Of a DNA stretch of 61,506 nucleotides, positions 8,828 through 56,300 are shown in pieces. This DNA is from a virus. Its lineage: Duplodnaviria; Caudoviricetes. The notes under the pieces are model-generated. The model was given only the letters and a program-made list of their open reading frames with translations. It had not been told where the DNA came from and ran no database searches. A program made the translations under genes and the position numbers. The stretch's first letter is position 1, and each line of letters starts with the position of its first letter. The stretch spans positions 1 through 61,506 of the IMG/VR virus record IMGVR_UViG_3300025570_000016. The stretch is one strand, 5' to 3'.

Positions 8828-9092
8828 TGTTGTCGTCTATTGAAATCATTAATAAAATAAGGTAACCACATAGGTCAAATAGCGTATCCTCCGTGCTATC
8901 TGATACACCTACGTTCTTTATCCTCGCTAACTTGTCATCAATCCTTGCGCATAATGAATCCGTTGACTTACCCTTATTGAATATGTTCAATGGCTCAAGC
9001 GCAGAACTTCCGTAATCCTTGTTCTTCTGTAGTAGCATGTCTCTAACCTTGTCAGCCTTCTGCTTTATCTGTAAACCTCTATCCTTGCTCAT
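8808..9092 (-). CDS. DUF1599 / nucleotide-modification-associated domain protein
   Basis: KNKDYGSS...RIDDKLARI...EDTLFDLCGYLIL. Confidence 0.78.
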   Translation of the reverse strand: MSKDRGLQIKQKADKVRDMLLQKNKDYGSSALEPLNIFNKGKSTDSLCARIDDKLARIKNVGVSDSTEDTLFDLCGYLILLMISIDDNNEKTGI

Positions 9093-9813: not shown

Positions 9814-9845
9814 CAAATATAGTATAACTTTTGTTTAATTCCAAA
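9814..9845 (-). promoter_or_regulatory. Bacteroidota sigma-A promoter
   Basis: TTTG-N20-TATATTTG. Confidence 0.85.
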
Positions 9846-9850
9846 TTTAA

Positions 9851-9890
9851 AGAGAAAAAAAAGAATCCGTGATAACGGATTCCCTTCTCT
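9851..9890 (-). terminator. Terminator built on palindrome 2 (core 9866-9879, one loop change)
   Basis: Minus strand GAATCCGT-TATC-ACGGATTC followed by a T-run. Confidence 0.75.
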
Positions 9891-10008
9891 CTGTCTTTGA
9901 ATACCTTTGCCAATATGAAAGTCTAACTAAAAGACTCGTGGTCTTGGCTATTAACCATAAGCAGGTATCCCCTCAATCCCCAAGACATCGGAGATTTTTA
10001 AATGACCA

Positions 10009-10342: not shown

Positions 10343-11410
10343 TTAAAAGTTATACACTTCTGCTAATGTGTACCAATCATCGCACCCATTACAATGGTAT
10401 TGGTTTATGGTATCATCGTATTGTAGAGGCTGAAAGCAAATCATACACTCCTTAGATTGTGTATCACAACAATCATCATCGGTAGCTAAGTCTACATCGT
10501 AGTAGCTATTAAAGTTTATCTGCTGACACGTATCCACAACCCTTGGTCTTCGGTACCCCGTGTAGTTCTGAACGTAACTCTTATGCATCTCTGTACTTGA
10601 ATCAACCTTCTTAGGGTTAAAGTATAACCACGCGTTAATCACTCTACCATCCTTCATTCTGATAGGTATCTGCCTGCGCTTGTACCAATTAGGGTGACCC
10701 TCTAATGCGTCAATCTCCTTGAATGCCTTATCTGAGACCTTGAAGATGTCCACCTCAACATGATGTCCACTACCCCTTTGGTCTACCATGTATGGCAACC
10801 CCTCAATCAGTAATGGGTATTTGTCGTAAGTCTCCCCTCTACCTAAATGCTTTGATGATGTTAGGTATGAGTAGTAGTTGCTATAACCTTTCTTCAACGT
10901 GCCGTATACTGCAATAAGATTGTCTTGCAGTACATTGGCTTTTGAGTACCATATACCGTCTCGGTATGTGTAGGCATCTCTGTTGTACATTTGGAATGAA
11001 CGATTACGCTTGTTGACCGTTACAAACCGTGAGTCATACTGCTCCAACTCTTTCTTCCATAGTTGCCTTGGTATCTGACCAAGCGATATAGCTAACGCTT
11101 TTGAATCTGACATCTGAGCATTACCCATACCCTTGATAGTTCCATTCATCATTAGCCACTCATCTTTCTGCACCCCACATTGGAATGGGTGCATGTTCTC
11201 TCTGTTTACTGCTCCGACAGTAGCATATCTAAAGTGAGCAATAAACGGTCTATCTGTTAGTAGTAGACCATAGTCTTTTGACTCGTGATACGTTATCTCA
11301 AACGTATCTAACCACACGATACCAAGTCCGTGAGGATTAATCCTTGCTGATGTCTTCGCAATCTCTCGCGACATCATCTGCTTTTTCTGTTTAATAATAA
11401 TTACGCACAT
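10343..11410 (-). CDS. Class II glutamine amidotransferase fused to gamma-glutamylcyclotransferase, with C-terminal Zn ribbon
   Basis: Start MCVII (Ntn Cys), NPHGLG, HFRYATVG, NMHPF, NGTI, SDS; VYGTLKKG and LEGHP (GGCT/AIG2); CMIC...CNGC. Confidence 0.88.
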   Translation of the reverse strand: MCVIIIKQKKQMMSREIAKTSARINPHGLGIVWLDTFEITYHESKDYGLLLTDRPFIAHFRYATVGAVNRENMHPFQCGVQKDEWLMMNGTIKGMGNAQMSDSKALAISLGQIPRQLWKKELEQYDSRFVTVNKRNRSFQMYNRDAYTYRDGIWYSKANVLQDNLIAVYGTLKKGYSNYYSYLTSSKHLGRGETYDKYPLLIEGLPYMVDQRGSGHHVEVDIFKVSDKAFKEIDALEGHPNWYKRRQIPIRMKDGRVINAWLYFNPKKVDSSTEMHKSYVQNYTGYRRPRVVDTCQQINFNSYYDVDLATDDDCCDTQSKECMICFQPLQYDDTINQYHCNGCDDWYTLAEVYNF

Positions 11411-11432
11411 TGTGTTTAATGTTTGTGAGGAA

Positions 11433-11446
11433 TCCGTTATAACGGA
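11433..11446. repeat. TCCGTTATAACGGA palindrome 3, in the 5' leader of GATase-GGCT
   Basis: Lies between the promoter at 11471-11502 and ATG 11410. Confidence 0.95.
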
Positions 11447-11470
11447 CTGACCTCTGATTAGTGAATTGTA

Positions 11471-11502
11471 CAAATATAAGACAAAATTTAGACATAGCCA
11501 AA
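11471..11502 (-). promoter_or_regulatory. Bacteroidota sigma-A promoter
   Basis: TTTG-N20-TATATTTG; spacer largely shared with 13205-13236. Confidence 0.85.
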
Positions 11503-11503
11503 T

Positions 11504-11662
11504 TTAATGTCCGTTATCTATCAAGGCTTCTGTTACCTTCATTCCTTGCTTCTTAGCTTCCTCTTCCAATGTAGGAAAACAAGCTATGAATAGTTCTTCT
11601 GTTTCAAACGTAGCCACGCATTCAGCATGATTACTGCTCTCAAAGTATACTTCTACGTACAT
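11504..11662 (-). CDS. 52-aa hypothetical protein (not in ORF track)
   Basis: MYVEVYFESSNHAECVATFETEELF...; preceded by the 18-bp leader repeat. Confidence 0.65.
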   Translation of the reverse strand: MYVEVYFESSNHAECVATFETEELFIACFPTLEEEAKKQGMKVTEALIDNGH

Positions 11663-11702
11663 GATTTACTTCTTTTTAGGTTTAGTTTTAGTTTAGTTTG
11701 TA

Positions 11703-11945
11703 TTAGATATGATAAAATTTTATCGTATCAGTATATTTAGGTAGCTTCTTAAAACCATCTTGTCTTTTTATTTCAATAACTCCATTTTCTACTGCCACAT
11801 ATTCCCAACCATAATTAGTCATGCCATAGGCATTGATTATTCCTACTATCTCTTTGACGTTATTTGTTGGTAGGTCGCAGATAGTCATTTGCGTTTCGCT
11901 AAATTCGTCTAAAAATGTGCATTCGTAAAGTTTCTTACTTTCCAT
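11703..11945 (-). CDS. Early hypothetical protein
   Basis: ORF between 18-bp repeats. Confidence 0.7.
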   Translation of the reverse strand: MESKKLYECTFLDEFSETQMTICDLPTNNVKEIVGIINAYGMTNYGWEYVAVENGVIEIKRQDGFKKLPKYTDTIKFYHI

Positions 11946-11970
11946 AATTTCTACTTCTTTTTAGGTTTAG

Positions 11971-12198
11971 TTAGATGCACCAACATCCGTCTTCGGTTTC
12001 TTTTAATATGTATAACTTCTTCTTATTAGCTTTTTCTTTATCAAGAAACTGAATACCATTGACAACAAGATCGTCTATGTTTAACTCGTTTAAATCTACA
12101 TCCATTTCAAGTAGATAATCCATAAGCTCTTCGTAATACTCATTGTCTATGTCTACACAACAAGACATCATAAGTCTGTTTAAATTAAATTCTTTCAT
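11971..12198 (-). CDS. Early acidic hypothetical protein
   Basis: ORF between 18-bp repeats. Confidence 0.7.
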   Translation of the reverse strand: MKEFNLNRLMMSCCVDIDNEYYEELMDYLLEMDVDLNELNIDDLVVNGIQFLDKEKANKKKLYILKETEDGCWCI

Positions 12199-12217
12199 AA
12201 CTTACTTCTTTTTAGGT

Positions 12218-12403
12218 TTAAATTAAATCTCCGTTCTCATCAAAAGAACCTATTACATCTTCTTCTTCAGTTTCTTTTTCTTTCTTGTAGATTGACATTC
12301 TGTACTCATCATCTACCATACGTTTAGTCATCTGTTGTTCAATGCTAATGCCTTCAATCATGCCTTGCATCATGGACTCGAATAATTTTTTGGTCTGTCC
12401 CAT
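12218..12403 (-). CDS. Early hypothetical protein
   Basis: MGQTKKLFE; AAACACAATG leader. Confidence 0.7.
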   Translation of the reverse strand: MGQTKKLFESMMQGMIEGISIEQQMTKRMVDDEYRMSIYKKEKETEEEDVIGSFDENGDLI

Positions 12404-12418
12404 TGTGTTTAATTTATT

Positions 12419-12482
12419 GGTTAAGACTCAAATCCGCTATAACGGATTCAAGTTTCGGATATTCAACCCTCATCAGTTAACC
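12419..12482 (-). ncRNA. Hammerhead ribozyme, type I, with palindrome 4 inside stem III
   Basis: GGUUAA CUGAUGA GGGU-UGAAU-AUCC GAAA CUUGAAUCCGU-UAUA-GCGGAUUUGAG UC^UUAACC. Confidence 0.88.
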
Positions 12483-12486
12483 TATT

Positions 12487-12795
12487 TTAGGTAGTTATTA
12501 TCTCAAAGTTATACGCCTCTATTTCATTCTTAATAAAATTTTTACCCTCTTCCGTTGTTACAACTTCGTCTATCCATAAAGAGAATAAAGAATTGTGTAG
12601 TTTATCAAATTCATCATCTGAAACACATTGTATTATCTTGTGAAATATGGGTGCAATTTCTTTGTTGTTAATCCACCACTCACCTAAAGATTCGTCACAT
12701 ACGTATCTTAAGAAAAATCTATATGCTGAAATAGTTGGCTCGTTTTCTACAATAAACTTGTTTAAATCGTTATCATAAATTGAAACTCTTTTCAT
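12487..12795 (-). CDS. Early hypothetical protein
   Basis: ORF. Confidence 0.7.
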   Translation of the reverse strand: MKRVSIYDNDLNKFIVENEPTISAYRFFLRYVCDESLGEWWINNKEIAPIFHKIIQCVSDDEFDKLHNSLFSLWIDEVVTTEEGKNFIKNEIEAYNFEIITT

Positions 12796-12815
12796 ATCGT
12801 TTTAGTTTTAAAGGT

Positions 12816-13007
12816 TTATAGGTCTAATTTATATTCTAATCTGTTCTGCATCTCCGTTTCAATCATAGCAATAAATGTCGAATCGTATTTACAGCCTTTC
12901 GGGAATTCTTTTCTGTACTCTGTTATGTCTCTGTGGACTAACTTCAATGTGTAATCACTCATAAGACCTATTAGGTCATAAGCAGATTGTGTTTCTAAAT
13001 GTGCCAT
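12816..13007 (-). CDS. Early hypothetical protein
   Basis: ORF. Confidence 0.65.
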   Translation of the reverse strand: MAHLETQSAYDLIGLMSDYTLKLVHRDITEYRKEFPKGCKYDSTFIAMIETEMQNRLEYKLDL

Positions 13008-13018
13008 AGCTTTGTAGT

Positions 13019-13183
13019 TTAAGTTATTTCGTATCCAAACGAATGTATTGAATTCTCGTTGAGCATCTTCAATAACTGCTTGTACTCTCTTGTCGCAGTC
13101 GGTCTCTTGCAGTCACGCACTGCCAATGTAGATGAGTTAATTCCAACCCCTTTTAACGTGTAGAAAAATCTTACTCTTAACAT
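13019..13183 (-). CDS. Early hypothetical protein
   Basis: Start MLRV, downstream of the promoter. Confidence 0.6.
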   Translation of the reverse strand: MLRVRFFYTLKGVGINSSTLAVRDCKRPTATREYKQLLKMLNENSIHSFGYEIT

Positions 13184-13204
13184 AGTTTCTGTGTTTGATT
13201 TAGA

Positions 13205-13236
13205 CAAATATAATACTAAATTTAGACATATCCAAA
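13205..13236 (-). promoter_or_regulatory. Bacteroidota sigma-A promoter
   Basis: TTTG-N20-TATATTTG. Confidence 0.85.
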
Positions 13237-13238
13237 TG

Positions 13239-13400
13239 TTAGTCTATATTTTTATGTGTTAATACTAAGTATAACGTGTATACTCCAAATGGTAGTAGGT
13301 AAATGTATCCTACCTCTGTCGTGATAGCAAACAAGAATATTATCATAATGTTTGCCATAATCAATGCGAATATTGTCGCGTAGTCTAAAATCTTCTTCAT
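13239..13400 (-). CDS. Small two-TM membrane protein
   Basis: MKKILDYATIFALIMANIMIIFLFAI... Confidence 0.6.
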   Translation of the reverse strand: MKKILDYATIFALIMANIMIIFLFAITTEVGYIYLLPFGVYTLYLVLTHKNID

Positions 13401-13401
13401 C

Positions 13402-13626
13402 TTATTTGTCGTTTTGCTTGAATGCTTCCAATGTCTTTGTGTAATTGGATAGCTTCGTTTGTAATAATTTAATGGTCTCACGCGTATCATCGCACACGTA
13501 GGTGTTACACTCCGCCAATCTGAATTGGTAGAAATGAATGCTGTGGTTAACCTTATCTAGGTCAGCAATATACTGCTCAGTAGATGCGATTAAATTTCTC
13601 AATTCTCTTCTCTCAATTGTATCCAT
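13402..13626 (-). CDS. Coiled-coil hypothetical protein
   Basis: Start MDTIERR, downstream of the ribozyme; the listed upstream extension reads through the ribozyme. Confidence 0.65.
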   Translation of the reverse strand: MDTIERRELRNLIASTEQYIADLDKVNHSIHFYQFRLAECNTYVCDDTRETIKLLQTKLSNYTKTLEAFKQNDK

Positions 13627-13646
13627 ATCAATATGTTTAAATGGTT

Positions 13647-13697
13647 TCCGTTTCGACCTTTTGGTCTCATCAGCACAAGCACTCACTTGTGGACGGA
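13647..13697 (-). ncRNA. Hammerhead ribozyme, type III
   Basis: UCCGUC^CACAAG-UGAGUG-CUUGUG CUGAUGA GACC-AAAA-GGUC GAAACGGA. Confidence 0.93.
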
Positions 13698-13698
13698 T

Positions 13699-13724
13699 GA
13701 GGAATCCGTTATAACGGACTCCCC
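13699..13724 (-). repeat. Hairpin with palindrome 5 (core 13705-13718)
   Basis: GGGGAGTCCGTTATAACGGATTCCTC, directly 5' of the ribozyme. Confidence 0.92.
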
Positions 13725-13731
13725 ACATACG

Positions 13732-14688
13732 TCATCTTAAAGTCTCCGCTCTAAGGCTTCTTGTGTACAAGTGACTCAAGTTACCAAATCGGTCAACGAA
13801 TGGTTTCACTGCGTGGTTAATTTTACGCGTCATCAACATCTTTCTGAAATGCTTTGATAACTCCATAACCTCAGACACCTTATCTGCGTCGCCATTGTAC
13901 ATCATCATGAGAATTGGTTTCAACTTGCTTAGAAGACCTCTATGCGTTCCATTTGGCTTATTCACCGCGTAGTTAACAATCTCATACATCAATCTGTATC
14001 TAAAGTTCAAATCAGCTACACTCTTCACCCTACTCGGCAATCTAAACTCAATCCTATTGTCATCAATACGGCATACTTGGTATTTGTGATGAGTACTAAT
14101 TCCGTCCCACTCAGACCGGCATACATCCATGAAGATGTTTGACTGACACCACGTTCTTCGCAATCTGAATCGGTATAGCGCGTAGATGATTCCACTGAAT
14201 GGTCTAATTGCGTCAGCTAACTCTTCTCCGCTCATCCCTTTAACCGCTAGGTTAATGTGACCCCCACATTCGATGTCTGACGGCGAGAATTGGTCATCAA
14301 TGACATGCTTCGCTTCGCTGAACATATTGAAGATTTTGTTCCTCCAAACGGATTTGCCAATCAACGGAAGTACATTTGTGATAGCTTCAACACCACATGA
14401 CCCGTCAGTCTCAAAGTGACTGAGCAAAGGGTATTCCTTGACCGCATTACGATGAAATGTGTTCTTCTCAATCTCAAAGCCAATAGTAAAACGCGACTCA
14501 ATCTCTCCCTCATCAGTTACATTGGTAGTTAAATTCATTTCATTGTGAGGTAAATGCTTTAGGTCATATTGGAATGGTGTTTTGTCAAACATCCTATAAG
14601 GCAATCCATTGCGCTTTGCCCACCCATAAGATAGCATTCGACCGCGGTCCTCATTGCCCTCAGTAGTGTAAGTGATTTGTGCATTCAT
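13732..14688 (-). CDS. Putative amidoligase (COOH-NH2 ligase, Amidoligase_2-like)
   Basis: FTIGFEIE, ETDGSCGVEAIT, CGGHINL, RIEFRLP. Confidence 0.82.
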   Translation of the reverse strand: MNAQITYTTEGNEDRGRMLSYGWAKRNGLPYRMFDKTPFQYDLKHLPHNEMNLTTNVTDEGEIESRFTIGFEIEKNTFHRNAVKEYPLLSHFETDGSCGVEAITNVLPLIGKSVWRNKIFNMFSEAKHVIDDQFSPSDIECGGHINLAVKGMSGEELADAIRPFSGIIYALYRFRLRRTWCQSNIFMDVCRSEWDGISTHHKYQVCRIDDNRIEFRLPSRVKSVADLNFRYRLMYEIVNYAVNKPNGTHRGLLSKLKPILMMMYNGDADKVSEVMELSKHFRKMLMTRKINHAVKPFVDRFGNLSHLYTRSLRAETLR

Positions 14689-14713
14689 AATCTATGTAGT
14701 TAATGGTTTAAAA

Positions 14714-14764
14714 TCCGTTTCGACCTCTTGGTCTCATCAGCGCAGGACACTACCTGCGGACGGA
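14714..14764 (-). ncRNA. Hammerhead ribozyme, type III
   Basis: UCCGUC^CGCAGG-UAGUGU-CCUGCG CUGAUGA GACC-AAGA-GGUC GAAACGGA. Confidence 0.93.
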
Positions 14765-14765
14765 A

Positions 14766-14793
14766 CAGAAAATCCGTTATAACGGATTCTCTG
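14766..14793 (-). repeat. Hairpin with palindrome 6 (core 14773-14786)
   Basis: CAGAGAATCCGTTATAACGGATTTTCTG, directly 5' of the ribozyme. Confidence 0.92.
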
Positions 14794-14807
14794 CATCATC
14801 TTAGTGA

Positions 14808-15497
14808 TTAGCTCCATATACCAATTGCTCTGATGATTTTCAATGAGTCAGCTTCAAATTCATCCTTAATGTATTGAGGCACCTTGTCTGCGTCTCCGTC
14901 AATTGTCCATTGAGCATCATCGTATAGCTTCACTACAACTCCAATTCCGTCTTCGAATAACTGCCCGTTAACAATGTAAGATTTGATAACCTTACTTGTA
15001 GTTTCCTCAGCATTTGCTTCAGCGCTCGCTTCAGCGGTAGCTTCAGCAGATTCCTCTGTGCTTACTACCTGCGCATCATCTCCGCTTTGCTCAGCCTTGA
15101 TAAACTTGATAAGATTAGCAATTGAGCGCGATGCAGTTACGTTCCCTGAATTCTCCATGGTTGTACATTGTCGCTTGTATTTCGATACAATGTTTTGGTC
15201 TTCCACAACAACCTTACCCACTCTGTTTTGGTCAGCAAAGAATGAATACTTCCACCCGAAGATATCCATAGCGAATTCTTCTTTGGTCATCACAATACCG
15301 GCATACTCAAAGCACTGCTTTCCCTCAGGCGATTTAAACCATTGGTAGGTCAGGTGCACCTTTTTAGCTAGCTTGATTTTCTTGTCGAATGCAGTCACGT
15401 CATTAGCATTCAATTCATTCAATAGAGCAACTGCACCATTGAATTCCGCTACATTGCTTTCTAGCAATTCAGCTACATTTGTGTTTAATGTTCTCAT
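14808..15497 (-). CDS. First early gene, hypothetical protein
   Basis: 229-aa ORF with Ala/Glu-rich linker; TATCTTAG promoter-like box near 15547-15556. Confidence 0.75.
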   Translation of the reverse strand: MRTLNTNVAELLESNVAEFNGAVALLNELNANDVTAFDKKIKLAKKVHLTYQWFKSPEGKQCFEYAGIVMTKEEFAMDIFGWKYSFFADQNRVGKVVVEDQNIVSKYKRQCTTMENSGNVTASRSIANLIKFIKAEQSGDDAQVVSTEESAEATAEASAEANAEETTSKVIKSYIVNGQLFEDGIGVVVKLYDDAQWTIDGDADKVPQYIKDEFEADSLKIIRAIGIWS

Positions 15498-15599
15498 AAT
15501 CAGTAGTTTAAGTGGTTATCGCTCGGGGTGTATCCCCAACCGCACAGCTAAGATACGTCTAATTCTCGTATAAAAAAACTATATGCAGATTATTTATAC

Positions 15600-15965
15600 A
15601 TTATTTTGACAGAATTTGTACAAGCGCAGTAAACACGCAATATGCAGCGCGGTGTATTTGGGGCAATTTATTTGGGGCTAATTTGGTCGGGCGGGGGCAA
15701 TCTCTTATGTGCTGATATGCAATATTGAGATTTGTCTTTGGGGCAAAGACATGGAGCGCAGTGAATACGCGGTAGAATCCGTTATAACGGAACACGTAAA
15801 ACGTGGACGGACGGGGGACGGGGGACGGACGGACGGGGGACGGGGACGCGTAGCAAAACGTCAAAAAATCCACATGCGCAGGACAAAAGCACACCCCCAC
15901 CCTTGAAAAAAAAATCGGTTTCGTTCGAGGGTGCGCGCGCGTGCGGCGGGGGGGAACCCACAACC
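15600..15965. other. GC-rich non-coding strand-switch region (candidate genome end or origin)
   Basis: TTTGGGGC x3, GCGCAGTRAAYACGC x2, palindrome 7 (15778-15791), GGAC/GGGGGAC tandem array. Confidence 0.6.
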
Positions 15966-15999
15966 TACACATATCTAAAAATTTTTGTATCTTTACCCC

Positions 16000-16152
16000 A
16001 TGTATGAGATAGAACTACAGAATAGAATTAAGATAGGTTTTTGCTTAGGCTTTGGTATATACCCAAACGATAAGGATTATAACTTCTCGGAGTACATTTT
16101 ATATTTAGGATTAATTAGTATACACATAAAAATTTTCAGGGATGAACTATAG
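16000..16152 (+). CDS. 50-aa hypothetical protein (not in ORF track)
   Basis: MYEIELQNRIKIGFCLGFGIY...; overlaps the next ATG. Confidence 0.55.
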   Translation: MYEIELQNRIKIGFCLGFGIYPNDKDYNFSEYILYLGLISIHIKIFRDEL

Positions 16153-16330
16153 TGGATTAAAAGTAAAGGACGGTCGATTGATTAATGATAGACCAACAGG
16201 TAAAAGCGGTATTGAAGAGGCTTCAGAAATTCGCAAGGCTGTAAAGATGAACGAGAAGGCAAATGTTATTGCTAACGGAATAGAAAAAGCTGAAATGCGT
16301 AAGGATATGCGCAACATGTTCGGCAAATAA
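16142..16330 (+). CDS. Hypothetical protein
   Basis: ORF followed by a terminator. Confidence 0.65.
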   Translation: MNYSGLKVKDGRLINDRPTGKSGIEEASEIRKAVKMNEKANVIANGIEKAEMRKDMRNMFGK

Positions 16331-16384
16331 CATCATTGTGTTTGATGGTTGAATTGATTGGGTAGTGACTTTCAATTCGTAAGA

Positions 16385-16407
16385 GAGGGGTTATCCCCTC
16401 TTTTTTT
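16385..16407 (+). terminator. Intrinsic terminator
   Basis: GAGGGG-TTAT-CCCCTC then T7. Confidence 0.8.
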
Positions 16408-16444
16408 GTTTATGCTTTGACAATAGTCGTCATAAATAGTTAAT

Positions 16445-16581
16445 ATTATGATGATTTAATGACAACTTTAAAAACGTAAAATATTGGTTATCAATTACTT
16501 TGATAATAATGATAACTTTTTACTTAATTTGTAGTGAATAAAAAAAGAGAGAGAGAGATATATTATATATATATATATAGA
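16445..16581. repeat. Origin-like AT-rich element, copy 2
   Basis: Same motif order and spacing as 5869-5990. Confidence 0.65.
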
Positions 16582-16629
16582 GCGACCCTAACGAATCAAT
16601 AGTTTATTACTTTATTAAAAAAGATTTAC

Positions 16630-16659: not shown

Positions 16660-18270
16660 ATGAATCAAACAGGATACACTCCGAAAGATTTACACTTCGA
16701 TAAGGAAGGTAGAGAAAAACTATTCAGCGGTTTAGATAAAATTGCTACCGCTGTGAAGAGCACACTTGGTCCTCAAGGTAACACGGTGCTTATTGAATCA
16801 CAAGAACATACTCATGGGATGACTGTCACCAAGGATGGTGTAACTGTAGCGAAGTCAATTGCTTTGCTTGACCCTGTGGAGAATCTAGCAGTCAGAATCA
16901 TGAAGGAGGCTTCGGAGAAGACTGCTGTATCTGCGGGTGATGGAACGACTACAGCTATTGTTCTATCTGAGGCTTTGGTAAACGCAGGTGTTTTATGCAT
17001 TGATGAAGATAATAATAAAACTGCTGTTTTCAGGGAGCTAGTTAAAGCAACTAGTCATGTTGTGGACAAGTTAAAGAAAATGAGTAAGCCTGTTACTGAT
17101 AAGAAGCTAGCTAGTGTAGCTACTATATCGGCTAACAATGACCCTGCGGTTGGTAAGATTATTGCTGACGTGTATAAGGAGGTTGGTTCAAATGGTATCG
17201 TTACCGTTGAGCGCAGTCAAACTGCTCAGACCTACTACGAGACTACTAAGGGTATTAAGGTTGACAGGGGCTATACCTCTAACTTATTCATTAACAATCA
17301 CAAGAAGGACGAGTGCATACTCGAGGATACTTATGTCTTGGTTAGTGACGCTGAGATAAGTAACGTGCTACAGATTGAGAATGTTCTCAAGCCTATCATT
17401 ACTAACAACAGCAAGCTGCTTATTATTGCGCCATGCTCTACTAATGTGGTAAACACGTTGGCCGCTAACGTAATGAAGAACGGCTTAAAGATATGCGTGA
17501 TACAGCCGCCGAACTTTGGCTACAAGCAGCACGAGCTGATGAATGATATTGCATTGTCTGTTGGGGCTACCTACTACAGTGAGAAGACGGGTGATGACCT
17601 GAGCTTAATTACCGCGGATGACTTGGGTAAAGCCAAGAAGGTTATCGTGGGTAGAAACCAAACAATTGTCATCAAGGATGATGAGGTGGTGTCAGAAGAA
17701 TCTATACAGGAGCGTGTAGAGCAATTACAGGACGCTCACGAGCTTTCAATGAGTAAGGATGAGAAAGAGTTCATTCTGTCTAGGATAGCGTCTCTAACGG
17801 GCGGAATCGGCGTTATATACGTAGGTGGTAACACTGACCTAGAGCAGAAGGAGTTGCATGACCGTGTTGACGATGCTGTATGCGCAGTTCGCTCAGCTAC
17901 CGTCGAGGGTATACTACCGGGAGCGGGTATGTCTTTAGCTTACATTGCCGAGAACATCGAACTGAATCATGAGTGGGGTGCTGACAAGTTCTCTGCCTAT
18001 GAGATGCTTAAGATAGCTTTAAAAGCTCCTGCACAAACAATTCTTGAGAACGCGGGTCTTAGTTACTATGAAATGTATAGTGAGGATAAACCGAAAAAGG
18101 GGTACGGGTATGACGTTAAAAATGGCAAGCACGGTAACCTAATGAGCATGGGCGTTATTGACCCAATGAAGGTTACTAAGAGTGCGCTTCAAAATGCTGT
18201 GTCAGTAGCTGTCACACTTCTCAGCACCAACGCTATTGTGACAATGGCACGTAGCTATGAGACCAAGTAA
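16660..18270 (+). CDS. groEL: Chaperonin GroEL
   Basis: TLGPQG, TKDGVTVAK, AGDGTTTA, GVIDPMKV; no GGM tail; start at MNQT. Confidence 0.96.
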   Translation: MNQTGYTPKDLHFDKEGREKLFSGLDKIATAVKSTLGPQGNTVLIESQEHTHGMTVTKDGVTVAKSIALLDPVENLAVRIMKEASEKTAVSAGDGTTTAIVLSEALVNAGVLCIDEDNNKTAVFRELVKATSHVVDKLKKMSKPVTDKKLASVATISANNDPAVGKIIADVYKEVGSNGIVTVERSQTAQTYYETTKGIKVDRGYTSNLFINNHKKDECILEDTYVLVSDAEISNVLQIENVLKPIITNNSKLLIIAPCSTNVVNTLAANVMKNGLKICVIQPPNFGYKQHELMNDIALSVGATYYSEKTGDDLSLITADDLGKAKKVIVGRNQTIVIKDDEVVSEESIQERVEQLQDAHELSMSKDEKEFILSRIASLTGGIGVIYVGGNTDLEQKELHDRVDDAVCAVRSATVEGILPGAGMSLAYIAENIELNHEWGADKFSAYEMLKIALKAPAQTILENAGLSYYEMYSEDKPKKGYGYDVKNGKHGNLMSMGVIDPMKVTKSALQNAVSVAVTLLSTNAIVTMARSYETK

Positions 18271-33726: not shown

Positions 33727-33767
33727 AAAAAGGGAGTCCGTTATAACGGACTCTCTTTTACTTTTTT
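33727..33767 (+). terminator. Terminator built on palindrome 8 (core 33737-33750)
   Basis: GGGAGTCCGTTATAACGGACTCTC then TTTTACTTTTTT. Confidence 0.85.
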
Positions 33768-53320: not shown

Positions 53321-56300
53321 ATGAACGAGCAGGTATTAAAAGATTTATACGATAGAGCTGTATCTAAAGGTTATCAAAAATCTATTGAAGAGTTTAATGC
53401 GTTACTACAAAGTAATGAGAATGTATTAGCCGACAACTATGGTTACGTGCAAGAGAAGGGATACCAAAAGTCTCTTGAAGATTTCTCTGTTTTAGTAGGA
53501 GTAAAAAAAAAAGAAGATTCGGTTTCAGTTTCTCAGCAGGTCGTTACGGATTCTACTATACCACAGCAGCAGGAAGAGGTTATTTCTTCGGAGTCTATCA
53601 CACTTGAAGAACCTTCTGAATATACTGTTGTACAGGATGCAGAACCAAGTAGAAGGTATCAGGGTGATAAACCGATTTCATTAGAGAAGTCTACCGCTAT
53701 TGAGAGAGTGTTCGGTAAGAACGAACTTACCGATTTGTTTGGTGACATCTATAGAGCAGGTGCAGCAGGTCAAGCCCAAGGTGGTTCTGTTGACGAGGCT
53801 TTAGAGTTGTTTGCAAAAGGTTCTGACGTTTCAGATGATGACATCCAAGAATTTATTGCTGCACAAAAACGCATGCAATCTATGGGTGAGTCTGATGAGA
53901 TGCGTGATTTCCAAGAAATTTATCAAGAGAATGGTGGCGGTTGGCTAGGCTTTGTAAAAGGTGTGGCTAAAAACCCTACCGTTATACCACAGTTATTCGT
54001 ATCGTCAGTTAGTGCTATGGCTACCCCTGCAGTCCTTGCGGGTGCAGCAGGTGGTGCAGCAGGTGGTGCTTTAGTTGGTGGGCCTGCCGGAGCTTTAATA
54101 GGTGCTATGGGTATGGCCGGTACTACGCTTGAGACAGGTCTTACTTACGCTGAGCTACTACAAGAGCAGCTTGGTGACAAGCCTATGACCACTGAGAATA
54201 TAAGAGCTGTATTAGGAGACAAGGAAGCGATGGATGAGATTCGCTTTAAAGCTGTAGGGCGTGGTCTTACAATTGGTACTATTGATGCTATCACGGGTGG
54301 TCTTGCAGGTAAGCTTACTACTAGCGTTGTAAAATCTACAGGTCGAAAACTTTTAGGTGCTACCGCAGGTGGTACTGTCGAGGCTGTAGGTGGTTCTGCG
54401 GGTGAGGTTGCAGGTAGATTGGTTGCGGGTCAAGAGATGGACGTTGCTGAGATTGGTTTTGAAGGTATTGCCGGTACAGCCACAGCCCCACTGACTGTAG
54501 GTTATGGTCTTTACAAAGCCCCTAAATACCATATAAATGGTAAGGATAAAAACGCTGCAGTATCAGGTCCTGATATGGCTAGGTTTATTAGAGAGGCTAA
54601 CCCTAACGATTTAATTAAGGCTGAGGTTAACATTGTTAACGACGATGTGCTGCAGGCTGAGTATACAAAGAAATACCAAGAGGCTGTAACTAAGAGAGAT
54701 ATATCTGAGGCTGACCCTGAGATGAACCAACCTACGCTTGACGCTATCACAGAGCTTCAGGTAGAGTTGAATAACCTTAAGGGTAAAGACAATCAGGTAG
54801 CTAAGGATAGAGCTAAGGTTATAAGAGAGGAGATAAAGAATCTTCAAGAGAACCCATTAACAGAAGAAACAGATGCCATTCAAGAGCCAAGCGCAGAGAC
54901 GGTGGATGTACAAGAACAAACCGGAGTTAGCGAAGGAGTTCGAGAAGGAGACACCGACATCACAGCAGTTACCGAAGAGGTTACACAAGAAGAAGTACAA
55001 GAACAAGATGTCTCTCCGGAGCTACAGAGCGAGGTAGACAAAGCTATTGCAGACGAGCAGTTAGACTTAACTGAGTTAGACCAAGCTATTACTGAAGAGG
55101 CGGCCACTGAACAGGCGGTTACTGAGGAGTCTATCGCTGAGGAAGTTGCACCTGAAGAGGTGGTTACCGAAGATGCTGTTGCTGAAGATGCTGTTACTGA
55201 AGTATCTATATCTAATAAAGAACAGGTTAACAACCTTATTGATAAAGTTGATTCTAATAAACAGCAAATAATAAATAGTGCAGTCAAAGCTGTTAATACC
55301 TTAAAGTCTGTATTACCTAACTTTGATATTATAATACACGACACCACTGATAGCTATAATTCTAAGATGGCTAAGGTTAATGGTAATGAAAATTCTCGTG
55401 GCAGCTTCTCTTATTCAATTAACGAGAACGGAGACTTTGTAGGTAGCATAGATATTAACTTAACTAATGCTAGGGTTAGAACGGTTGCTCATGAAGTGAC
55501 TCATGCTGTTTTACTAAAATCATTTGGTGAAGCCCCTGCTACATTTTCAAAATTTAAGAATAAAATATCGCAGATAATTAAATCAGATGACAACGTAGCT
55601 CTTCAAGAGTTTGCTGATTTATACGATAGAGATGTAGCTCCTGAGGAATATATTACAGAGCTTACTGCAATGCTTGCTGAGAAGGGGACTAAGATAAGCC
55701 CGTCTACATTACAAAAAATTGGAGCATTAATAAACGAATTAGTGTCTAAGATTACTAATGGTAAATTAAAACCATTTGAAGAACTGTCTAACATCAATGA
55801 GTTAGCTGATTTCTTTAACACCGTCTCTCAAGCAATAGCTGAGGGGGATGTGATTGACTCTGACGGCGTTACTGAGAAAATAAATGTAGACGCTACACCT
55901 AACGAAACAGAGGTTGATACCGGCAGCTTAACGTCTAAGTCAAGTTTAATTCAAGACTTAGGGCTTACTAGGTTTAAAGAGATGTCTTCAAGAATAAAGA
56001 CGGGCGTCACCATAAAAGATGTTGGAGAAGTAGAGTCTCATTTAACTTTCGCAGATAGATTAGTTACAGGTAAGGTTGGGACTGAAGATTATTTAGGCGG
56101 TATATTATTCGCCGCAGCGACAGGTAATGTTTGGGCCTCTTTTAAGCTAGGGAAAGTTAATTCTATAATCAAAGGAATGCCTAAAAATAAAGACGGCTTC
56201 CGATACTTAATGCCCGCTCTTCTTACTGAGTCATCGCACATGTCTAACAAGAACATGGTTATGACATCGTTAAAATTAATGAATGATTCCATAAAAAATA

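Follow-up and report, generated by a model that had tools for sequence, protein, structure and literature searches.

Hammerhead ribozymes have been described flanking genes in prophages, in several copies, and the part of that report on which we draw proposes that they process long phage transcripts (Perreault et al. 2011, PMC3088659). Their role in bacteria and phages is nevertheless still called undefined in the relevant portions of two other papers (PMC6765202, PMC10085705). A well known way to divide a long phage transcript is that of T7, whose polycistronic early precursor carries five RNase III signals in the account used here (PMC3867540). In this work, we have analyzed three hammerhead elements, one of type I and two of type III, in the 61,506-base IMG/VR virus record IMGVR_UViG_3300025570_000016. 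The whole record, which is rated complete, was used and is called the window below. In each element, the predicted cut lies just 3' of a stable hairpin built from a short palindrome that is repeated across the phage genome.

Results

Three predicted hammerheads with a palindromic hairpin 5' of the cut

The type I hammerhead occupies positions 12419-12482 on the minus strand and has a complete core with a GUC cleavage triplet. Read along the RNA strand, it consists of GGUUAA, CUGAUGA, stem II (GGGU-UGAAU-AUCC), GAA, stem III, C17, and UUAACC. Stem I pairs 12482-12477 with 12424-12419, the CUGAUGA of the core is at 12476-12470, stem II (4 base pairs (bp) with a loop of 5 nucleotides (nt)) is at 12469-12457, GAA is at 12456-12454, and the stem III hairpin is at 12453-12426. 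With C17 at 12425, the cut would fall at 12425/12424, which is 1 nt 3' of the stem III hairpin and 21 nt before the next AUG. Stem III is a 12-bp hairpin (A-CUUGAAUCCGU-UAUA-GCGGAUUUGAG-U), and its apex (12433-12446, minus strand), which reads UCCGUUAUAGCGGA on the RNA strand, has one mismatch to the repeated palindrome TCCGTTATAACGGA. This agrees with a first-pass annotation of the same DNA, made from the letters alone, which had described the palindrome hairpin as the ribozyme's own stem III. In a 146-nt context, the hammerhead is the minimum free energy (MFE) fold.

The other two elements, hammerhead A (13647-13697, minus strand) and hammerhead B (14714-14764, minus strand), are of type III and share the order UCCGU-C17-stem I hairpin-CUGAUGA-stem II-GAA-ACGGA. 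In A, stem III is formed by UCCGU (13697-13693) and ACGGA (13651-13647), and C17 at 13692 places the predicted cut at 13692/13691 on the minus strand. In B, C17 is at 14759 and the cut would be at 14759/14758. The differences between the two copies in stem I are compensatory. Each copy is preceded by a palindrome hairpin that ends 1 nt before it. The hairpin before A (13699-13724, minus strand) has 11 bp (GGGGAGUCCGU-UAUA-ACGGAUUCCUC), a pair probability of ~1.0, and starts 7 nt past the UGA stop codon (13734-13732) of an upstream gene encoding 318 amino acids (aa), and the hairpin before B (14766-14793, minus strand) has 12 bp (CAGAGAAUCCGU-UAUA-ACGGAUUUUCUG). They reach 11 and 12 bp because their flanks pair too (GGGGAG/UUCCUC and CAGAGAA/UUUUCUG). 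The gain in complementarity at hairpin A is 8 on the RNA (minus) strand but 0 if Watson-Crick pairs alone are allowed. The stem extensions thus use G-U pairs that are valid on the sense strand alone, which argues that the hairpin acts as RNA. The type III cuts are predicted 7 nt 3' of the upstream hairpin and 65-70 nt before the next AUG. All three ribozymes lie on the coding strand between a stop codon and the next start, and they fill these intergenic gaps. A small open reading frame (ORF) spanning hairpin and cut site was considered and dropped, as inspection by eye found it in copy B alone.

A search of the window with the core pattern CTGATGA-N4-30-CGAAAC gave three matches on the reverse strand and none on the forward strand; with the reversed pattern, used as a control, neither strand had a match. 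We also built covariance models, which, run over the whole window with filters off, recovered exactly these three hammerheads, with scores of 83.4 bits for the type I copy and 77 bits for A (each being a member of the training set), and 67.8 bits for B. The next-best matches of these models in the window were bare palindromes at ≤27.6 bits, and the same whole-window scans found no hidden or decayed ribozyme copies beside the other six palindromes. At gathering level, Rfam reported 0 matches in the window and none of the 20 copies in the loci of six relatives, and its thresholds therefore miss all 23 copies examined (3 in the window and 20 in relatives). The best Rfam match of the type I copy, to RF03152, is an end-to-end alignment of 26.1 bits, below the gathering score of 56.3. 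RF00008, with a gathering score of 48.5, matches A partially (18.0 bits) and B end to end (42.6 bits, E 2.6e-07 in a 2.6-kb search), and a whole-window Rfam scan at E ≤ 10 listed neither. A gathering score is a curation threshold, not a biochemical criterion. Judged by sequence and predicted fold, the three elements are almost certainly hammerhead ribozymes.

Folds and hairpin placement in related phages

Close relatives were obtained by pattern scans of viral contigs and include five whole records (G001 to G005), in which the ribozyme census was taken with a simple finder of our own. The window has one type I and two type III copies, G001 and G002 have four and one each, G003 and G004 have three and one each, i.e. 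3 to 5 ribozyme modules per genome, and G005 has no type I copy and one type III copy. In an alignment of 15 type I copies, 286/286 cells are paired and 9 of the 22 pairs have changed on both sides, compared with ≤38% paired cells in slid controls. The core segments CUGAUGA, GAAA, and GUC are invariant in 15/15 homologues except at position 7 (U or C, which the consensus allows). The type III alignment has 24 sequences, namely the two window copies and 22 of 26 distinct 51-nt copies; of those left out, one is identical to copy A and three have a different stem register. Here 359/360 cells are paired (slid controls, ≤47%), and 9/15 pairs have changed on both sides, with such changes in 6/6 stem I pairs and 2/4 stem II pairs, whereas stem III is uninformative on covariation, since the search pattern had set it in all but two rows (UCUGU/ACAGA). 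Fast cleavage at low Mg2+ calls for a tertiary contact between stems I and II, and loop lengths are conserved as well (5 nt in stem II of type I, 6 and 4 nt in type III). The predicted type I and type III folds are well supported by covariation.

The palindrome forms the apex of stem III in 15/15 type I copies and a hairpin just upstream of 6/6 type III copies in five genomes (the window and G001 to G004). The claim in the first-pass annotation that two different topologies put the same hairpin 5' of the cut therefore extends to the relatives. The distance from cut to AUG in relatives is 19-24 nt for 14/15 type I copies. The window has 9 palindromes, and G001, G002, G003, and G004 have 15, 16, 14, and 13, respectively. 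Their arms are UCCGU/ACGGA in all palindromes of G002, G003, and G004. In G001, 15/15 palindromes read UCUGU/ACAGA. Those in its 4/4 type I stems III and the one that precedes its type III copy are among them, while the stem III of that type III copy stays UCCGU/ACGGA. Because the ribozyme hairpins of G001 carry the G001 variant, the hairpin in stem III tracks the phage's own repeat. In G005, the palindrome is GUGUC/GACAC, which is neither of the clade variants, and stem III is UCUGU/ACAGA.

The two junctions of the 318-aa gene are informative in this respect. The junction after it holds a type III hammerhead in all six genomes (the window and G001 to G005), and the junction before it holds type III in the window and type I in G001 (protein 84% identical) and G004 (58%). 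As one orthologous junction can hold either type, the two topologies are interchangeable there, both with the hairpin 5' of the cut. Selection on the placement of the hairpin, which the first-pass annotation had suggested, is supported by these comparisons for both topologies, since the placement is conserved and survives both the genome-wide hairpin change of G001 and the swap of topology at an orthologous junction. We also considered that paired type III cuts release RNA circles. This was rejected, because with type I at one of the two junctions in relatives no ribozyme would be re-formed in a circle.

Two further features of the relatives concern the sequence around the hairpins. The same 4-nt duplication (ACGGACGGA) is found in G002 in a type I stem III and in the hairpin that precedes its type III copy (56031-56056 and 57283-57315), and also at these sites in G003 and G004, and it permits two hairpin registers. 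In addition, a UAAGAUGAYG motif is conserved just 5' of the type III hairpins in the window (13731-13740 and 14795-14804, minus strand), in G001 (~1215-1230), and in contig L004. The motif overlaps or follows the upstream stop codon, and pairing with CGUC at the cut site is predicted.

Hairpins abutting phage hammerheads in general

We surveyed 71 unique type III copies from viral contigs that include 45 nt of upstream sequence; the pattern used to find them forced stem III to UCCGU/ACGGA, and several are from related phages. The 45 nt upstream of these ribozymes have a mean folding energy of -16.8 kcal/mol, as opposed to -8.1 kcal/mol in flanking controls (71 copies versus 554 control windows; Mann-Whitney p=1.4e-23). 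The mean for the 45 nt downstream is -3.9 kcal/mol. Between hairpin and stem III, there are 0 nt in 42/71 copies and ≤4 nt in 66/71, and 32 of 41 upstream-sequence clusters have an abutting hairpin. In other phages, the sequences of these hairpins are unrelated. Without the stem III restriction, the upstream energies are -11.3 versus -6.4 kcal/mol (p=0.012) among the matches listed (55 type I and 14 type III), a weaker trend from a sample with 14 type III copies and possibly some false calls of our own finder.

For type I, the GGUUAA...UUAACC family was surveyed in 158 unique copies, most of which have a stem III of 14-22 nt; the 28-32 nt of the window clade are in the upper tail. Seven type I copies of the same GGUUAA family, from contigs of other phages (L247, L259, L264, L306, L321, L350, and L352), have a hairpin followed by a run of 7-8 U, i.e. 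a terminator, inside stem III. Among the sampled contigs, a genome-wide repeat in the type I stem III is found in the window clade only. For the palindrome of the GUGUC/GACAC clade, a search for type I stems gave two pattern matches, neither of which is a type I copy with that apex.

One type I hammerhead is present in a cultured phage of Flavobacterium, the Elemovirus vB_FspP_elemoA_7-9A (MT497017.1, contigs L103/L104 in our set). It lies between early genes at ~17290-17347 on the minus strand (GGCAAA-CUGAUGA-...-GUC-UUUGUC) and is unannotated; the record has instead a hypothetical protein on the opposite strand (17275-17382, plus strand). Its apex hairpin is unique in MT497017.1 and hence not a genome-wide repeat. 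Separately, contigs L124, L278, and L143 have 4-5 type I hammerheads within a few kilobases, L278 having 5 in 3.7 kb.

The palindrome as a genome-wide repeat

At ≤2 mismatches, the palindrome has 9 copies in the window, compared with 0.16 expected, and 0/100 shuffles reached 9. A wider unit of 26 nt, GGGGAGUC[C/U]GU...AC[G/A]GA[C/U]UCCCC, is common to the sites. Besides the three ribozyme-linked copies, three copies resemble terminators. The terminator scan found one at 9853-9892 (minus strand), with 18 pairs and then a T run, followed by a promoter-like TAnnTTTG site near 9821. The other two were recognized by eye. The copy at 33737-33750 (plus strand), after the gene for a 478-aa virion structural protein, has an extended stem (9 on the plus strand) and a T-rich tail, and the copy at 60353-60366 (plus strand), after a 2339-aa gene, has a stem extended by GGGGAG.../...UUCCCC and a U run. 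Because of these U runs, we consider that the palindrome hairpin also serves as a terminator stem. The hairpin lacks a U run in the three ribozyme-linked copies and also at 6796, 11433, and 15778.

These last three copies have no ribozyme. The copy at 6796-6809 (minus strand) is directly 3' of a stop codon, at a site kept in G001 to G004, and its downstream flank CACACAGATG is identical in all five genomes. The copy at 11433-11446 (minus strand) is between a promoter-like TAnnTTTG site (11478) and the start of a GATase/GGACT gene, and it has the flank AGUCCGUUAUAACGGAUUCCUCA in common with hairpin A. The copy at 15778-15791 (minus strand) is in a GC-rich (up to 56%) non-coding stretch between the gene blocks (15600-15980), where it adjoins a (GGAC/GGACGGG)n array at 15805-15850. 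On the minus strand, this array reads as CCGUCC repeats, which are the letters of the type III cleavage strand, and past it are UCCGUC and a short hairpin (CACGU-UUU-ACGUG), resembling the first half of a type III hammerhead without the core. A search of the relatives for such half-site arrays found the (GGAC)n array in the window and none in G001 to G005. The stretch could be an origin, a genome end, or a decayed module.

Phage genome and neighboring genes

The window has a block of minus-strand genes from 1 to ~16,330 and a block of plus-strand genes at 16,639-60,340. The AT-rich divergent region between the two includes runs of AT and TC dinucleotides at 16545-16590 (ctatatatatatatataatatatctctctctctc). 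Matches to PHROG families include a large terminase, a portal protein, virion structural proteins, a primase/helicase, a helicase, and a GroEL-type chaperonin. In the uncultured podovirus record MW202828.1, the terminase shares 76% identity with that of the window; the identity is 46% for the terminases of Elemovirus, a genus of Flavobacterium phages, and phages of Cellulophaga were matched as well. Going by these matches, the record is a roughly 61-kb podovirus-like phage of Flavobacteriia / Flavobacterium-like bacteria. A tRNA scan of the window found none, and a DNA similarity search with positions 11000-16500 found no match among deposited phages.

Many genes of the window are preceded by TAnnTTTG motifs, which we take to be the -7 element of Bacteroidota promoters. 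The ribozyme gaps have a single such motif, at 12511, within the terminal part of the upstream gene. Pfam and PHROG scans of 50 ORFs of the window recognized no phage RNA polymerase. Together with the TAnnTTTG motifs, this leads us to adopt transcription by the host enzyme as a working assumption.

The 318-aa gene (13732-14688, minus strand) has 563 homologues and no Pfam or PHROG family. Its predicted structure (pLDDT 91.6) resembles glutamine-synthetase-type enzymes (Foldseek E 4e-05, TM ~0.32), and a sequence search against solved structures gave no match at E<0.4. We had considered its product as a binder of the hairpin and rejected this in view of the resemblance to glutamine-synthetase-type enzymes. 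Nearby are a fusion of GATase and GGACT domains (10343-11401, minus strand) and a weak match to DUF1599, described as 'nucleotide modification' (8808-9092, minus strand); with the 318-aa gene, these may make up a module for modifying nucleotides or DNA. A Sak-type single-strand annealing protein (7546-8130, minus strand) adjoins a PDDEXK (DUF3799) nuclease (6810-7562, minus strand), and this recombination pair could act on short repeats. Finally, positions 5928-6096 (minus strand) have a weak match to the Bacteroides small RNA BTnc231 (27.6 bits, compared with a gathering score of 80.4), with a strong terminator at the end of the stretch (6054-6030) that does not use the palindrome.

Discussion

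In the reading that we favor and hold to be moderately probable, the modules carry out constitutive intercistronic self-processing, which would give the upstream message a hairpin-capped 3' end and the downstream message a leader with a 5'-OH. The polymerase would read on through the module, and the RNA would cut itself just 3' of the stable hairpin. The upstream cistron would then end in a 3'-terminal stem-loop with a 2',3'-cyclic phosphate, and the downstream cistron would begin with a 5'-OH, followed in the type I case by an A/U-rich leader of 21 nt and in the type III case by the folded ribozyme body and then a short leader. The ribozymes would act within polycistronic early transcripts made by the host polymerase, and the hairpin would be the phage's general-purpose 3'-end hairpin, protecting trimmed mRNA ends. 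RNase III cuts in T7 leave a 3' stem that is stabilizing or protective. As the same 26-nt unit is the stem of the terminator-like sites elsewhere in the genome, the module would make terminator-like ends without stopping the polymerase. The three hammerheads are probably constitutive; that they cut in vivo, that the 3' end is protected, and that stability or translation is affected are inferences.

Several observations weigh against constitutive end formation. A purely protective hairpin leaves unexplained both why the arms are identical while the loops vary, in 9-16 copies per genome, and why all 15 copies of G001 switched together. The 71-copy survey was drawn with a fixed stem III and partly from related phages, as stated above, and the hairpin could instead aid ribozyme folding by stacking on the short stem III. 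In addition, when ~20 nt of the natural upstream flank are included, a competitor (GAUG/GACG) pairs with the CGUC of the cleavage strand. This drops the probability of the type III stem III to 0.01-0.03 and leaves the native fold 2.8-3.0 kcal/mol above the MFE, in a nearest-neighbor energy model that ignores tertiary contacts and makes the competitor fold only a hint. Given this fold, type III cleavage could be slow or conditional. Lastly, the closest phage by terminase, MW202828.1, has no match to CTGATGA...GAAAC, in a search limited to cores with U at position 7, which suggests that the modules are dispensable in some relatives.

The first-pass annotation had proposed a different role for the hairpin, i.e. 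a switch in which the palindrome arms, being the same as the strands of stem III, cross-pair with the ribozyme and gate cleavage. The identity on which this was built is real in the window, as the type III stem III UCCGU/ACGGA does have the letters of the palindrome arms in both A and B. It is common to the close relatives L004 and G002 to G004, and each bare palindrome, when scored with the type III model (9.8 bits), is placed in the position of stem III. The cross-pairing itself found no support. The local hairpin of 11-12 bp is far more stable than either cross-helix, so that their equilibrium pair probabilities are 0.00-0.01, and this hairpin is also transcribed first. RNA that starts at the hairpin base has hairpin plus hammerhead as its MFE structure, with a stem III probability of ~0.6-0.7, the same as for the ribozyme alone, and in the type I copy the hairpin is a plain helix of the active fold, which is itself the MFE. 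Nor is the identity conserved. It is broken in G001 and G005, and among 93 type III copies that were found by pattern and have stem III UCCGU/ACGGA, a TCCG...CGGA palindrome lies upstream of just 9, all from the window and its close relatives, and is missing from the other 84. A conformational switch calls for two mutually exclusive helices that are conserved or covary, whereas the arms of palindrome and stem III vary independently (G001 and G005). We therefore regard such a switch as very improbable, and the arm identity in the window is best read, from these comparisons, as an accident of lineage. A natural gate of another kind can be drawn from the competitor fold described above. The GAYG:CGUC helix is predicted for the window and G001, though not for G002, and its GAYG is at or beside the upstream stop codon. 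The uniform hairpin might then be an address tag for a co-evolving trans factor, with the type III copies gated by this helix and conditionally active, and a terminating ribosome or a hairpin-binding factor would open stem III and couple cutting to upstream translation or to the stage of infection. We consider this combination distinctly unlikely; if true, the phage operon would contain a naturally gated hammerhead, with a mechanism unlike that first proposed.

Three other explanations concern the hairpin alone. It might be a functional part of the ribozyme that stacks coaxially on the open 5-bp stem III of type III, mimics the closed stem III of type I, and aids folding or product release. 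The spacer, mostly 0-1 nt (0 nt in 42/71), fits this, and circularly permuting a type I hammerhead that has a long stem III would give, in topological terms, a type III with an abutting hairpin. Stacking should work at either strand end, however, yet the structure is 5' only (-16.8 kcal/mol upstream versus -3.9 downstream), most type I copies of the same family make do with stems III of 5-9 bp, and the modeled stem III probability is equal with and without the hairpin. On balance, we find a stacking role unlikely. The uniform arms point elsewhere, to a sequence-specific phage or host protein that would recognize the hairpin, or the palindrome in DNA, as an address and control termination, stability, translation, or cleavage. 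Within a genome, all copies found have the same arms and differ in their loops, the change in G001 took in 15/15 copies together, none of the 5 genomes (67 copies) has a mixture of arms, and the wider 26-nt unit is shared by the sites. Against this, the search patterns required these arms, so that divergent copies escape, no RNA-binding or regulator family was recognized near the sites (Pfam and PHROG, 50 ORFs), the G-U stem extensions favor RNA over a DNA operator, and in other phages unrelated hairpins are in the same place. Gene conversion between short repeats could yield the same picture; indeed, co-evolution with a factor and gene conversion between cassettes could each suffice for uniform arms. 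A trans-acting factor thus seems to us quite unlikely. If the units of hairpin, ribozyme, and leader were mobile cassettes, and recombination at the repeat shuffled the small early genes, the uniform hairpins and their position beside ribozymes would be by-products of cassette spread. Such shuffling would be in line with the different topologies at one orthologous junction, the variable number of modules (3 to 5 per genome), the flanks shared past the core (e.g. UAAGAUGAYG upstream and AAACC...UUAAAC downstream), and the Sak-type annealing protein and PDDEXK nuclease that the phage encodes, and the promoter/terminator motifs known as PeSLs are a precedent in T4-like phages, in the part of their description used here (PMC4122927). 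It is compatible with end formation, yet it does not account for the constant 5' position of the hairpin, relative to the cut, in unrelated phages, and we judge it improbable as the explanation.

From the window and its relatives, a concrete and testable rule emerges, namely that the cut always falls just 3' of a stable hairpin, whichever the topology. The rule is supported by the abutting hairpins (66/71), the clade's repeat in type I stems, the terminators inside stem III, and the swap of topologies. If it is confirmed, phage hammerheads would be self-contained makers of mRNA ends, like terminators that do not stop the polymerase. In practical terms, Rfam thresholds overlook such copies, one of them in a cultured Flavobacterium phage where it is annotated as a protein gene on the wrong strand. 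What is new is the obligatory hairpin 5' of the cut, the recruitment of the phage's genome-wide repeat for it, and the exchange between type I and type III at a single junction. In a full-text literature search, with supplements outside its scope, no paper joined a hammerhead ribozyme with an upstream, terminator, or adjacent hairpin, and the word 'terminator' has 0 occurrences in the main text of PMC3088659, the supplements of which may hold relevant alignments.

By core and helix layout, the three elements are like Rfam Hammerhead_3 (RF00008) and RAGATH-1-hammerhead (RF03152), except that RAGATH-1 has a further 5' hairpin, for which the predicted fold of the window's type I copy shows no equivalent. 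In arrangement, they are like the prophage hammerheads of Perreault et al., which, as far as the consulted part of that paper describes them, have canonical cores and occur as coding-strand copies a few hundred to a thousand bases apart, flanking single genes (PMC3088659). Here it is the 318-aa gene that has ribozymes on both sides, in all clade genomes. Of known repeated stem-loop cassettes, the PeSLs of T4-like phages are the closest to the palindrome; they are short stem-loops that, in the sections drawn on, are repeated between small variable early genes and are sometimes joined to promoters, as the palindrome is at 9892-9814 and 11478-11433; unlike the modules described here, the PeSLs carry no ribozyme in that account (PMC4122927).

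The closest functional parallels are two ways of making an mRNA end. The modules share their hairpin unit with the intrinsic terminators predicted at 9853-9892, 33737, and 60353, in which it is followed by a U run, and differ from them in that the three ribozyme-linked hairpins have no U run, so that a cut would replace termination. With the RNase III sites of T7, they have in common intercistronic cuts at or next to hairpins in one long transcript, which give separate mRNAs in the part of the T7 literature used here (PMC3867540). Unlike at those sites, the predicted cut in the window would be made by the RNA itself, with 5'-OH and cyclic-phosphate ends and no host enzyme. By analogy, the module can be viewed as a host-independent counterpart of the RNase III processing of T7 early mRNA.

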